Part shown: in pieces, positions 4,225-62,908 of the stretch
Layout: the number at the start of each line of letters is the position of its first letter
How positions within the stretch are numbered: position 1 is the stretch's first letter
DNA from: Eledone cirrhosa
Taxonomy: Eukaryota
Length of the DNA stretch: 63,830 nt
Assembly: GCA_964016885.1 (NCBI GenBank)
Contig: OZ024752.1
Location: 37,572,171-37,636,000, forward strand
Direction of reading: 5' to 3'
Notes under the pieces: model-generated
Told to the model about the DNA's origin: nothing
Seen by the model: the letters and a program-made list of their open reading frames with translations, nothing else
Databases searched by the model: none
Made by a program: the position numbers and the translations under genes

Positions 4225-4870
4225 ATCAGGAAAGAAGATTGACATGGTTTGCAATACAAAAAAGGTTTTTAATCTCATTGCTGACAATTGTTTCTCTGAA
4301 CTGGTAGGTCTAGAGATCGCTATTCGCTTATTTTCACGTTACTCGATCGCCAATACAAAATTATAACCAGTCAGTTCTTCGGAGCATGCGAGAATGAAGA
4401 AAATATACAGGCATGAATGGAATATACAGGCTACTTTGTTGTAATTGTTGTTATTGTACTAACTGAATGCCATTACTACTTCATATAGTAGTCTGTATAT
4501 TCTTTTCTTGCCTGTATATTCTCTTCATTCTCGCATGCTCCGAAGAACTGACTGGTTATAATTTTGTATTGGCGATCGAGTAACGTGAAAATAAGCGAAT
4601 AGCGATCTCTAGACCTACCAGTTCAGAGAAACAATTGCCAGCAATGAGATTAAAAACCTTTTTTGTATTGCAAACCATGTCAATCTTCTTTCCTGATTTA
4701 TTATTACTCCAAGTGTTTACAACATAGGAATTACAGCATACTCGCAACATCACTATGAATACGCCTTGTTGAGTCAAACCAAGCCTAGCGTTGATATCAT
4801 CCACTACCCGGAATACCATAACTGGACTACACCTAAGGGGACTGGATGTAACTATTATTTGTTACCCCGT
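4225..4870. mobile_element. Palindromic (AT)n-flanked insert; arms 4225-4413 / 4509-4697
   Basis: ~190-bp near-perfect inverted arms; (AT)n on both sides; same termini seen again at 23037-23120. Confidence 0.85.
4274..4392 (-). ncRNA. Hammerhead-like motif with long stem II, core variant CCGAAGA (mirror copy 4530-4649, +)
   Basis: TGCT CCGAAGA aCTGACTGGT...ACCAGTTCAGa GAAA CAATTG TC^AGCA; the + copy has CC instead of TC at the cleavage triplet. Confidence 0.6.
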
Positions 4871-5911
4871 ATATATATATATATATATATATATATATAT
4901 ATATATATATATATATATATATATATATATAGAGATTAAAGTTTTAGCAAAGAATCGCTGCTTTCACCCTTAACGGAATCTTCTGAAATATATTTATCCT
5001 TATCGAGACCTCTTTGGATTTTAGTTTTCATATTTGTTATTATTGTGTTATAATATAAAAGAAGCTTATGAAAAGAAAAAATACAAAAAACTTGTTGCTA
5101 TGAAACTCGTCCAGTCCAATATATTCTTTATAGATTTTTTCAGAAAGTATTAAATTTCATTAGTAAACACTTCACATATCAGTTAGCTACTTAGTAACTT
5201 TTGTTAATTAAGACTCTTTTGTTAATCACTTGCAATAACATGGTTAAATAGACTAGCTAACTACCTCTACCTACAGTCAATTATATATATATATATATAT
5301 ATATATATATATATATATATATATATATATATATATATATATATATATATATATATATATATATAGAGAGAGAGAGAGAGAGAGAGAGAGAGAGCGAGAG
5401 AGAGAGAGAGAGAGAGAGCACTCTTGTTTCCTGTACCTTTCCGACGGAATTACTTTATATATATATTACATTTTCTCGTTGAATATTTTACTTACAAATT
5501 AATTCATATATATATGTGTGTATATATAAAGTAATTCCGTCGGAAAGGTACAGGAAAAAAGAGTGCTCTCTCTCTCTCTCTCTCTATATATATATATATA
5601 TATACATATATATATATATATATATATATATATATATATATATATATATATATATATATATATATATAATTGACTGTAGGTAGAGGTAGTTAGCTAGTCT
5701 ATTTAACCATGTTATTGCAAGTGATTAACAAAAGAGTCTTAATTAACAAAAGTTACTAAGTAGCTAACTTATATATGAAGTGTTTACTAATGAAATTTAA
5801 TACTTTCTGGAAAAATCTATAAAGAATATATTGGACTGGACGAGTTTCCTAGTAACAAGTTTTTTGTATTTTTTTCTTTTCATAAGCTTCTTTTATATTA
5901 TAACACAATTT

Positions 5912-6136
5912 AGGGTGATCGGTTGGCAGTAGAATCGATAGAACATCGGACAATATGCTTTCTGGCATAGAGTTACGGTTCTTTACGTTCTGAGCTCAAA
6001 TAACGCCGAGGTTAGCTTTCCCTTTCATCCTTACGTGGTCGATAAAATAAAGTACCAGTAATGCTCTGGAGTCGATTTAATCGACTTTCCCCTTCCTTTC
6101 AAAATGGTTGACATTGTGCCTAAATCAGAAATCATT
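5912..6136 (+). mobile_element. SINE A (long subfamily)
   Basis: Core plus GTCGATTTAATCGACT segment. Confidence 0.8.
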
Positions 6137-7117
6137 ATGACTACCTCATCAGCGAAGCAGTTTTTACCGTATTTGTCGAAGTACTGGTGCGGTAAATCAC
6201 TAATGAACTGTACAAGATCAGTTGACACGGGGAAACGAAATTTCGTGGAGAATAATACCGAATGTTCTACGATTCGTACCCTCTCACCAACACTGCGTTC
6301 GTGAACAAAGCCTTAACCTTTAACGACGACTTGAAGTATGTATACGGTGTCTCAAAAGTCACTATCTATTTTGATTAGCAATAAGTACGCCAAAATAGAG
6401 ATGTTGCGAACGTCAAATAGAATACGTTGCTGTATTCGTTTTAGCTATCTGCTCTCTGAGGAGTTCAAATCCCACAGAGGTCAACTTTGCCTTTCATTCT
6501 TTCGAGGTCGATTCTCTCTCTCTCTCTCTCCTCCTCCCCCTCTTCCTTCTCTCTCTCTCTCATCCCCTCCCCCTTCTCTACCCTACCCTACCCCTCTTCC
6601 TCCTCTCCCTCTCACCCCCCCTCTTCCTCCTCTCTCTCCTTTCCCCTCCCCTCTTCCTCCCCTCTCTCTCTCTCTCTCTCCTCCCACATCACCCCCCTCT
6701 CTCTCTCTCTCTCTCTCTCTCTCTCCACACACATACGCACACACACATCTAAATATATATATATATAGTTATGTAATAAACAACATAAGGCAATTATTCC
6801 ATTCTATTATTAGTTATTACATAACTATTAAGCTCTGTTACCTACATAGAGCACTCTTTTTTCCTGGACTTTTCCGACGGAATTACTTCATTCACATATA
6901 TATATATATATATATATATATATATATATATATATATATATATATATATATATATATATATATATATATATATATATATATATACTTCTCTGGAAGAAAT
7001 CTGTTGTATTCTGACTTGGAGAAGGATGGGCTCCATCAGGCTTCAAATACCCAAGAAACGCCGTATGATATTACGCTGTCCCTAGGACTCCAACAGGTGT
7101 TACGGGATCATACATAC

Positions 7118-7733
7118 ATGGTGGCTGCCCACTCGTTTTCGAGTACGGCCACTACTTTATATCCATGTAGGAGAACTCCTACCGATGCGCTGAACGAGTG
7201 TGACTGTTTAGTCCAGCCAGCGACTTGAATACTCTGGTACAAACACTACACTTGTGACAATTATTGACACATAGTGCTGGGCCCATGGTACCATGTGACG
7301 ACAAGTGCAGAGAGATCTCCAGATATAAAGCAATGCCTGTGCCGTGAAGCTTTTATAGTGAGCAAAGGCACTGCACAAAGCCAGTCCCACTCTCTTAACC
7401 AAGATGATATTTACCAAAAAGAAGAACAAGTCAACATCATTGGATACCATCAGAGTTGCAGGTGTTATATCAGAGTTTTCCTTCTCCTAGAATTCTGCCT
7501 TGACAAAGGCTAAGGGGTCATCTCTCCCGGTGATTTTGGATGGCCATTGACTCTTGAGAGCTCCTTTGCCCTTTGACAGGTTTTGTTTTTAGTCCTGCAG
7601 GATGTCCAAAGTCACCCTCCTCACCAAGAAACCTTGGTGGGGTTGCCAGTTTAGTCGCCAACGACCCGACCATGAGACAGGTTGTACTGGAATACATGTT
7701 ACCAGTAGCACCAACTGGTGACCTGACATATGA
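7118..7733 (-). mobile_element. Internally deleted RTE-type element (5' UTR-like part + 3' end); second 3' fragment 21367-21602
   Basis: 3' part encodes CSVCTRVFKSLAGL-type C2H2 terminus; 5' part has CTAGGAGAAGGAAAACTCTGA, resembling RTE 5' regions (family from recall); flanked by (ATAC)n. Confidence 0.6.
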
Positions 7734-60706: not shown

Positions 60707-61127
60707 CGTTTTCTGATTTAAGCACAACGCCAATAATTTTGGTGGGGAGAGGAAAGTCGATTAAATCGACCCCAGTGTGTTACTGGTACATTATTTTGTC
60801 GACCCCGTAACGACGAAAGGCAAAGCTAACTAACCTCTGTGGGATATGAACTCAGAAAATAAAGACCCATAACTCTATGTTGCAAAGGATGGTGTCCGAC
60901 GCTCTACCGAAACTGCCAGTCCACCGCAACTCGGAATTATATAATTGTTTCTACATTTGGCGCAAGGCCAGCAATTACCCCCAGTGCATTACTGGTACTT
61001 TATTTTATCGACCACGTAAGGATGAAAGGCAAAGTTAACCTCGGCGGGATTTGAACTCAGATCATAAAGGGAGGTAACTCTATGCTGCAAAGTAAGGCGT
61101 CCGATGCTCTACCGGTTCTACCAATGC
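60707..61127 (-). mobile_element. Two SINE A copies inside the hAT fossil
   Basis: AACTCGGAATTATATAA at 60690, 60928, 61128. Confidence 0.9.
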
Positions 61128-62321
61128 AACTCGGAATTATATAATATCTGTTCTTTACATCAGGATTGAGATTTCAGATTTTTTACTAAGAAACCCTATT
61201 TATAACCTAGTATTGCAGGAACTCTGGCAGTTGTGCACCCGATTACATTTTTTCCAAGAAAACGTTTCTATACAAAGAAACTTGATACAACCTCATCCCA
61301 TCTCTGTCTTCTTCTTACTTCGTTGTTTTCTCCAGGTGTTGATAAAACGAGAACTCTTCTTTCAAATCAGACTCCTTCACCCATCTTGCGTATACAAACA
61401 GCTGGATGTCAGCTGATATATCTGTGTATTCATCAAACTTGATGGTGAAGATACCTAGCGGAGTCTCATTCATTTCTGAAATTACCTTATTTTTTTAAAT
61501 ATCAGCTGAAATGCCAGATATCTTTCGACGAACAGTATCATTTGACACTGACTACGTATTCAGTTTCGTTGGTGTATTATCTCCCGAGATGCAACCAACA
61601 AAAATCTTTGTATAGCAAAGTAATATCAAAATTTCGACGATTTCCTGAAGTTTCTTACGTTTTGCTTTTTCTCGGAGCAATCGGATCGGTGGCCTGTAGA
61701 CTAACCATACTTTGTTGATTCACCTATCTACTGTAGTCAAGTGGCATGAGGTGCTGGACTTACCCGTAAGATAAATAAGCTATAACTTAGGGTCACGTGC
61801 TCTCGGGGCACATGCTCTAGCGTCCGAAACGTTAAGACCCTCTTCCTGCTATATCAAGCGTTAACCTAATATGTCCCTTCCATACACTGTACCGATTGTG
61901 TTGTTATTTCTGTTTACCTTTAACACACACACACACACACACACACACACACACACACACACACACACACACACTCACACACACACACACACACTCACAC
62001 ACACACACACACACACACACACACACACACACACACATTTATATATATATATATATATATATATATTAAAATAACAGATTTGCTCAACGGTTTTTATATA
62101 TATTTATATATATTATCCTTATCGAGCCCTCTTCGGATTTTAGTCTTCACATTTATTATTATTAATATATATATATATATATACACATATATATATATAT
62201 ATATATATATATATATATATATATATATATATATATATATATATATATATATATATATATATATATATATGTATGTATATATATATATATATATATATAT
62301 ATATATATATATATATAGCAG

Positions 62322-62408
62322 AGGTCCAACGAGCTCTTGATTCCAGAGTCGGGCCAGGTCGATACAGATCGTACCTTGAGCTGATCAATAGCGAAACTCG
62401 CGTCACTA
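62322..62408 (+). ncRNA. Degenerate hammerhead with extended stem II (same family as 18141)
   Basis: GGT CCAACGA GCTcTTGAT...ATCAAtAGC GAAA CTCGCG TC^ACT; core degenerate; lies between (AT)n tracts. Confidence 0.5.
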
Positions 62409-62476
62409 CTCAATAAACGTAATGAAGACATAACAAATCGTCCTTTTATTATATATATATATATATATATATATAT

Positions 62477-62908
62477 ACGATATTAAACAAATGGAAACTA
62501 TATTTATAAAACCATATTTATTTCATTATACATATTTCGGGGATACCATATTAAAAATATGGCATGCCTTCGTCAGATAAAATACAATATATAAACAGTT
62601 TTATAAATAATTTTGACGTACCATAAATAGGAGCTACCATTATGTCGGAAGCTGGTTTGGTAGCTCCTATTTATGGTACGTCAAAATTATTTATAAAACT
62701 GTTTATATATTGTATTTTATCTGAAGAAGGCATGCCATATTTTTAATATGGTATCCCCGAAATATGTATAATGAAATAAATATGGTTTTATAAATATAGT
62801 TTCCATTTGTTTAATATCGTATATCTACTCCAAAAACTTGTCGAGTGCTTTATATCAGTTATAAAATATTTACTTGTTGTAACCCAACAATTTTAAATAA
62901 AACTTGCA
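62477..62908. mobile_element. Palindromic (AT)n-flanked insert with an HHR in each arm (62519-62584 -, 62713-62778 +)
   Basis: Arms 62477-62639 / 62658-62820; TATTTTAT CTGA(A/C)GA AGGcATGCCATATT..AATATGGTATCCCC GAAA TATGTA TA^ATGAAATA. Confidence 0.85.

Follow-up and report, generated by a model that had tools for sequence, protein, structure and literature searches.

Type I hammerheads of an Eledone cirrhosa window: palindromic helix III probably serves a double-hammerhead fold, not a family code

The stretch of Eledone cirrhosa DNA analysed here (contig OZ024752.1 of assembly GCA_964016885.1, positions 37,572,171 to 37,636,000 of the forward strand, 63,830 nucleotides; the window) lies in a 3.0-Gb animal genome with many microsatellites and carries a set of type I hammerhead ribozyme motifs, which we name, like their families, by core position (for example, 4382, 18223, 29668, 39831, 51509 and 54127). 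A preliminary description had counted about eight families with different palindromic stem III sequences and had proposed that each acts as a key that restricts cleavage to dimers of one family. We find it highly probable that these motifs sit in small repeated elements, likely non-coding retrozymes or truncated Penelope-like ends, and that palindromy in helix III would help two copies to form a double hammerhead and is not a family code.

The preliminary description had suggested comparing palindromy with controls, and this comparison supports it. The window and 1.35 Mb of the same genome (1.41 Mb in total) were scanned with a hammerhead descriptor that does not require palindromy, with the reversed and the complemented sequence, one strand each, as decoys. 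Of the 86 distinct motifs, 51 are self-complementary (40 Watson-Crick palindromes and 11 with G-U pairs), 16 have an odd-length helix III and 19 are not palindromic, whereas the decoys gave 4 and 2 hits, none of them palindromic. A relaxed version of the scan let in AT-rich satellite noise; one 50-kb block (B021) and non-C3 cores, except two forms, were removed before clustering. Odd-length and long hairpin helices III were excluded from the palindromy and collision counts, and lineages were assigned by hand. With the 16-nt hairpin family left out, the central four bases are self-complementary in eight of nine window lineages (P = 5e-9), and the same holds for 16 of the 19 hand-assigned lineages with an even helix III of 6-10 nt. 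These central four bases are unable to pair within one molecule. The self-pairing of AUAUGUAU depends on G-U. Separately, the odd-length words ACCACUGGU and ACCGUCGGU are palindromes around a single central mismatch (50-kb blocks from L036, L096, L101 and L106; L280), and another family, in which helix II measures 101-116 nt and helix III reads ACGAUCGU, occurs in 6 of 27 blocks (50-kb blocks from L041, L071, L096 and L111; L287).

The way in which the words change between copies and sister lineages matches what is expected of selected two-copy pairing combined with free sequence drift. In a superfamily of 6,117 matches with a helix I like that of 4382, the central pair is AU in 53, GC in 29 and GU in 18 of the first 100 copies listed, counted by eye, and AC in only 18 of the 6,117 genome-wide. 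The superfamily that includes 39831, 41080, 62721 and 23268 has 84,313 genome matches, with 28,333 copies of AUAUGUAU versus 154 of its non-pairing mirror AUACAUAU. As a control, the first 100 listed copies of the old and decaying 18223 family include 12 with a mismatch and 8 with a wobble (again by eye), and post-insertion decay in this family lacks the skew of wobble over mismatch. Furthermore, sister lineages carry compensated words: those with ACAAUUGU and ACAGCUGU are 77% alike, those with ACAAUUGU and ACGGCCGU 76% alike, and AUAUAUAU, AUACGUAU and AUGCGCAU form a third set. Because this compensated change passes through G·U at positions that cannot pair in one molecule, dimer pairing has likely been selected. 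A helix III centre that evolves via G-U and not A-C in genome-wide counts supports the use of the double-hammerhead fold in the source elements. It is this wobble path between sister words that is quantified here; motifs of this kind and the dimer model are already published.

Folding models agree with the earlier claim that these stems are weak as hairpins and stable between copies: all eight words are predicted at +1.5 to +6.0 kcal/mol as hairpins versus -2.2 to -13.3 kcal/mol between copies. For two neighbouring 310-bp units the double hammerhead is predicted at -82.7 versus -62.4 for two monomers, with a free minimum of -82.9, and for neighbouring 596-bp units at -199.0 versus -186.6. The three marks of a dimer-type hammerhead, namely an unstable hairpin, self-complementarity and covarying between-copy positions, are all present. 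In a multimeric transcript, one copy would provide the core and the 5' strand of helix I and the next the cleavage site and the 3' strand of helix I, with the reverse arrangement at the second core of the double hammerhead. Cutting would free unit-length RNA from multimers and leave a lone monomer or circle largely uncut. Since any palindrome suffices for a double hammerhead, the words would be expected to drift, with A-U pairs turning into G-U and then into G-C. A family would owe its specificity mainly to helix I and to having another copy of the same element as its neighbour. A Penelope-like reverse transcriptase and endonuclease would do the copying, as the insertion pattern suggests.

Several points weigh against this reading. 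Words of 8 and 10 nt can form two to three base pairs with a tetraloop, an arrangement typical of invertebrate hammerheads that cut as monomers (PMC7229834), and self-cleavage of the window motifs is itself a prediction. Copies are non-independent; counts reflect a few successful source lineages and about five independent compensated events, and hidden ancestry among the hand-assigned lineages may inflate word sharing. Outside the window, 67 of 87 sites are single, 19 are inverted pairs and one has a same-strand neighbour within 1.5 kb; most insertions are therefore unable to dimerise in cis, and cis pairing, seen only in tandem families, has to be ascribed to source copies or multimers, which were found in some families only, with trans pairing possible. 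Finally, no window family could be tied to a coding Penelope-like element at 30 short and 16 long GIY-YIG loci.

The families are also less separate than the preliminary description had it. Flanks reported as unrelated align at 73-77% among 39831, 41080 and 62721, which have a helix I in common with the AUGCGCAU family, and 39831, 41080, 62721 and 23268 form one superfamily with three words (AUAUAUAU, AUAUGUAU and AUGCGCAU). Similarity between the ACGCGU array and the 51875 family reaches 71% over 287 nt, so one lineage has both dimer-only and hairpin designs. This relationship joins the 310-bp ACGCGU element (15829-16008) to the hairpin-type family at 51660-51900, whose hairpin loop keeps a CUAG palindrome with a predicted dimerisation of -12.8.

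A further possibility, which we regard as unlikely, is a selected key among close kin, whereby sisters sharing helix I would change helix III to avoid cutting or pairing in trans. Compatibility at the same helix I can be poor (AUGCGCAU with AUAUAUAU at +5.3 kcal/mol versus -10.5 and -3.2 for the homodimers; ACAGCUGU with ACAAUUGU at -2.2 versus -11.1 and -6.4), the mostly single or inverted genomic copies leave room for trans pairing, and the palindromes of HIV-1 subtypes restrict co-packaging (PMC8472981). However, many subfamilies of the 84,313-copy superfamily, although very different in helix II, retain AUAUAUAU or AUAUGUAU, two words that pair with each other no worse than with themselves (-3.2). 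ACGCGCGU is likewise kept in three divergent 18223 subfamilies, as is ACGCGU in variants of the 310-bp element, in a search that itself demanded the word, and abundant G-U forms bridge neighbouring words: ACAGUUGU pairs with the words at either end of the series at -6.4 and -8.7, better than with itself. The persistence of words while helix II diverged widely would argue against selection for difference. We would give a similarly low probability to the completed compensated changes (AUAUAUAU to AUGCGCAU, ACAAUUGU to ACAGCUGU or ACGGCCGU) being selected isolating switches, a ribozyme-based speciation barrier; where sisters have one helix I but incompatible words, isolation might arise as a by-product. 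If true, selected word changes that isolate sisters would give selfish RNAs a new means of staying apart; such isolation could readily be tested on the natural AU/GU/GC series.

Cutting mostly as monomers is very unlikely in our assessment, with palindromy then arising from mutation bias (adenosine-to-inosine editing of element RNA, or TA-rich context) or reflecting an optional dimer. On the ribozyme strand both wobble steps are indeed changes of A to G, there are relatives with a hairpin-type helix III, as 51875 and the ACGCGU array illustrate, and a single copy suffices for cutting in mussel and coral retrozymes (PMC7229834). Yet no clear A-to-G excess emerged in nine of ten families, the tenth having too few copies, in a count of low power (A>G and U>C numbered 13 and 10 among singletons, 7 and 4 at shared sites). 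Nor could editing produce the second steps, in which a U opposite G becomes C, and six-base words keep just one pair in the monomer (+6.0 kcal/mol).

For a double hammerhead any palindrome would do, and the distribution of words among families is relevant to the idea of a code. One word per family does not hold: AUAUAUAU is common to the unrelated 29668 and 39831, ACAAUUGU to 4382, 51509 and others, and one lineage has three words. ACGCGU also occurs in three families beyond the 310-bp element (four of eight loci checked, with helix I scores of at least 5). Among 12 lineages with 8-nt words, 5 pairs collide, versus 1.0 expected from uniform or 5.0 from position-specific base frequencies; words are not dispersed between lineages, and sharing is at least as frequent as chance. 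Different words mostly pair worse together than with themselves, as proposed for keys, but they are not private to families. Nor are families that share a word predicted to cross-cleave, as had been suggested. In the double-hammerhead topology each core would combine the 5' helix I strand from one copy with the other copy's cleavage site and 3' strand, and the key idea needs correcting in that helix I is also swapped. Because helix I is exchanged and unrelated sharers form 0-1 cross pairs in it versus 4-5 of their own, word-sharing unrelated families are predicted not to cut one another. The helix I compatibility matrix is block-diagonal (the 39831 copy is itself damaged in helix I), with one chance exception, the 5' strand of 22846 with the 3' strand of 54127, which form five pairs while their helices III are incompatible (+5.4). 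Stems that are common to unrelated families and variable within one are therefore unlikely to be a family password; the private, mutually incompatible and over-dispersed words of an orthogonal code were not found, and a family code is unlikely. In its full form, a private word per family with cross-cleavage between sharers, the code is scarcely credible, since the eight words within the window and their mostly bad mutual pairing are set against contradicted privacy, a reused ACGCGU and helices I that do not match. Our literature search found no paper proposing a family-specific stem III code, a weak result given that Lunse et al. and Forster et al. 1988 were outside its reach, as were the supplements of PMC4209133 and PMC3088659, which possibly bear on word diversity.

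The layout and insertion sites suggest what the elements are. A (TA)6 run lies within 250 nt of all 18 motif positions tested, versus 39% of random positions within 300, and beside TA repeats we find tandem arrays, head-to-head pairs and stubs. Head-to-head arms occur at 4221-4701, in the 310-bp array, at 22840, 23230, 50490-50860, 51880 and 62476-62910, and also at most listed loci of the 310-bp element elsewhere in the genome. Partial tandems, inverted truncated copies and a microsatellite bias are described for Penelope-like elements (Craig et al., bioRxiv 10.1101/2021.04.23.441226), and the same combination is seen here. Non-coding retrozymes are tandems whose units measure about 150-450 bp and contain a single type I hammerhead. 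This arrangement is found in the 310-bp array and the 51033 family, whose relatives include a four-copy tandem at locus L288; the 596-bp unit is longer, inside the 51-972 bp range of Li et al., and the single stubs are candidates. The 310-bp ACGCGU pattern has 18,882 matches genome-wide versus 30 for a control, the word being required by the search. No RNA run was listed as carrying the 310-bp unit, and four runs compared with it yielded contigs only. In runs X3, X4 and X6 (kind unrecorded), window positions 11900-12600 correspond each time to one 340-nt contig (the 310-bp unit plus 30), which would fit a circle as well as a collapsed tandem and is no evidence on expression.

A Penelope-like coding frame (reverse transcriptase and GIY-YIG between pseudo-long terminal repeats, pLTRs) is absent among the 79 open reading frames of at least 120 aa in the window, and when the frames of 30 GIY-YIG loci were compared with the window by tblastn, no match exceeded 32 residues. 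Elsewhere in the genome GIY-YIG frames are plentiful (of 10,596 candidates, 150 were scored). At 3 of 16 long loci and at L277, an AGUACU hammerhead lies about 390-410 nt downstream of the frame on the same strand, and is likely the 3' pLTR of a coding Penelope-like family; this family is absent from the window. Loci with a small AGUACU hammerhead at this distance downstream of long frames include L281, L282, L287 and L292. Window families at GIY-YIG loci were rejected as candidates for such a link, their positions and orientations mostly fitting nested insertions; in a single case (L289), a GIY-YIG match is followed, about 900 nt downstream, by a copy of the 18223 family.

Within the window (Table 1), all ten stem III words of the preliminary description are present, each after GAA in a type I hammerhead motif, with the reservations that 23268 is only half a motif and the core of 18223 is damaged. 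Most of its positions mark the edge of a motif and lie as far as about 55 nt from the actual word, and its estimate of about eight families becomes ten in nine lineages, eight of them with clean palindromes. It had omitted hammerheads without a clean palindrome (22833/22846, 51875 and AGAACU at 38680) and the decayed copies at 4540 and 62326. The motifs have the CUGANGA and GAAA core, a UH site, helices I-III and an open helix I, with core variants U4C in 4382 and U3-A8 in 54127; 4382, 18223 and 54127/54723 at first seemed coreless because their helix II is long (81, 60 and 59 nt). The damaged or partial copies 18223, 62326, 4540 and 23268 belong to families that are intact elsewhere in the genome. 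The 18223 copy, whose core CUGUCGA has lost A6, is likely dead as a ribozyme, and its family has 1,686 pattern matches with an intact core. The 23268 half motifs retain the 3' part of helix II, GAAA, AUGCGCAU and the 3' strand of helix I and lack CUGANGA. By scanner, the window holds 11 sites, whereas 1.30 Mb sampled outside it holds 87 sites of recurring families, or 4.3 per 64 kb. An Rfam search of the window gave no hammerhead match reaching the gathering score, and its E-value matches (150 listed of 305) were dismissed as microsatellite look-alikes of microRNA-type models.

Table 1. Hammerhead motifs and the insertions that carry them, in window coordinates
Feature	Position	Strand	Details
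Two-arm head-to-head insertion	4221..4701	both	
Hammerhead 4382	4273-4392	minus	core CCGAAGA; 81-nt helix II; helix I UGCU/AGCA; helix III ACAAUUGU at 4284-4291
Decayed partner 4540	4530-4649	plus	helix III ends in C, not U16.1
Likely retrozyme array	11933..15597	minus	11.8 identical 310-bp units; left end in (TA)n
Array hammerheads (12)	cores 12128 to 15538	minus	helix III ACGCGU, first at 12099-12104
Inverted arm of 310-bp array	15590..16008	plus	one hammerhead 15829-15879; ACGCGU 15863-15868; right end (TA)n
Hammerhead 18223	18135..18233	minus	60-nt helix II; helix III ACGCGCGU at 18146-18153
Head-to-head pair	22785..22894	22833 minus, 22846 plus (cores)	hairpin-type helix III: 4 bp, 8-nt loop
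Inverted half-motif pair	23150..23307		AUGCGCAU at 23268-23275(+), mirrored 23202-23209
Single hammerhead 29668	29614..29678	minus	helix III AUAUAUAU at 29625-29632; helix I CUGC/GCAG type; unrelated to 39831
Single hammerhead 38680	38636..38690	minus	non-palindromic AGAACU; other copies AGGACU
Hammerhead 39831	39821..39885	plus	UUUUAU/AUAAAA superfamily; helix III AUAUAUAU at 39867-39874; helix I damaged at second pair
Hammerhead 41080	41070..41136	plus	UUUUAU/AUAAAA superfamily; helix III AUAUGUAU at 41118-41125
Element with 417-bp unit and inverted arm	50490..51335	plus	hammerhead 51023-51073; ACUAGU at 51057-51062
Hammerhead 51509	51470..51519	minus	helix III ACAAUUGU at 51481-51488; helix I CGAG/CUCG; unrelated to 4382; inversion junction immediately upstream of core
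Head-to-head pair	51827..51919	51875 minus, 51882 plus	51875 hairpin-type helix III (4 bp, 8-nt loop); 51882 helix III mostly deleted
Partial tandem, 596-bp unit	53800..54826	minus	hammerheads 54038-54137 and 54634-54733 (54127/54723), 596 bp apart; U3-A8 core UUGAUAA; 59-nt helix II; helix III ACUACGUAGU, first at 54049-54058
Decayed 18223-family copy 62326	62316..62414	plus	core CCAACGA; helix III ACUCGCGU
Head-to-head pair, UUUUAU/AUAAAA superfamily	62476..62910	62517-62586 minus (core 62576), 62711-62780 plus	helix III AUAUGUAU in both; plus word at 62762-62769

Other sequences in the window were set aside or noted in passing. A motif at 2782 was discarded, its helix III being unpaired and its core not retained in homologues, and the CUGAUGA sites 16563, 16956 and 29129 each lack a complete motif. 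A recurring repeat at 16535-16984 and 29060-29250 has head-to-head arms and a CUGAUGA/CUGACGA word near its TA-repeat end; no complete hammerhead was detected in it. Young tandem repeats free of hammerheads lie at 59653-60622, 58722-59249, 43181-44661 and 37478-38184 (periods 57, 44/72, 139 and 79 bp), the 57-bp array containing a continuous open frame of 359 aa. A fragment is present in two copies, at 18209-18964 and around 36400, and its translation looks like the end of a long interspersed nuclear element (LINE)-type frame.

Palindromic helix III and dimer pairing are already published (PMC3088659, PMC4209133 and PMC7229834). Cervera and de la Pena 2014 (PMC4209133) report palindromic helix III, a dimer model, high variability within a genome, the U3-A8 variant and opposite-strand pairs, and the window motifs resemble these metazoan Penelope-like pLTR hammerheads in being type I, with a short palindromic helix III, many variable families per genome, a U3-A8 core, single and opposite-strand paired copies and predicted dimer activity. 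They differ in a helix III of 6-10 nt, a helix II of up to 81 nt and a window without a coding element. Reviews (PMC6765202 and PMC6466107) credit dimer cleavage to Lunse et al. 2016/2017, and for axolotl motifs with a palindromic tetraloop or a basal U-U in helix II, dimers are far more active than monomers (PMC7229834). An origin of retrozymes from Penelope-like elements is put forward by Li, Clavereau and Pollet 2026 (bioRxiv 10.64898/2026.07.22.740005). The elements are like animal non-long-terminal-repeat retrozymes (PMC7229834; Li et al. 2026) in being tandems of non-coding units, each a few hundred bases long and carrying one type I hammerhead; their units, however, are 310, 417 and 596 bp, with head-to-head arms in TA repeats and about ten families in the window, and expression as linear and circular RNA, a mark of animal retrozymes, would here be a prediction. 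Varied palindromes in repeat-type dimer hammerheads were described by Perreault et al. 2011 (PMC3088659), in passages that are silent on how specific the families within a genome are for one another. A palindromic key would find its best precedent, by analogy, in the dimerisation initiation site of HIV-1 (PMC8472981), with its six-base palindromes, of which GCGCGC and GUGCAC are incompatible and limit mixing. That site, however, is a kissing loop that packages separate genomes and has no second swapped helix, whereas here helix I already separates families. Against this background, our analysis adds members to known families and one clean piece of comparative evidence for the use of the double hammerhead.

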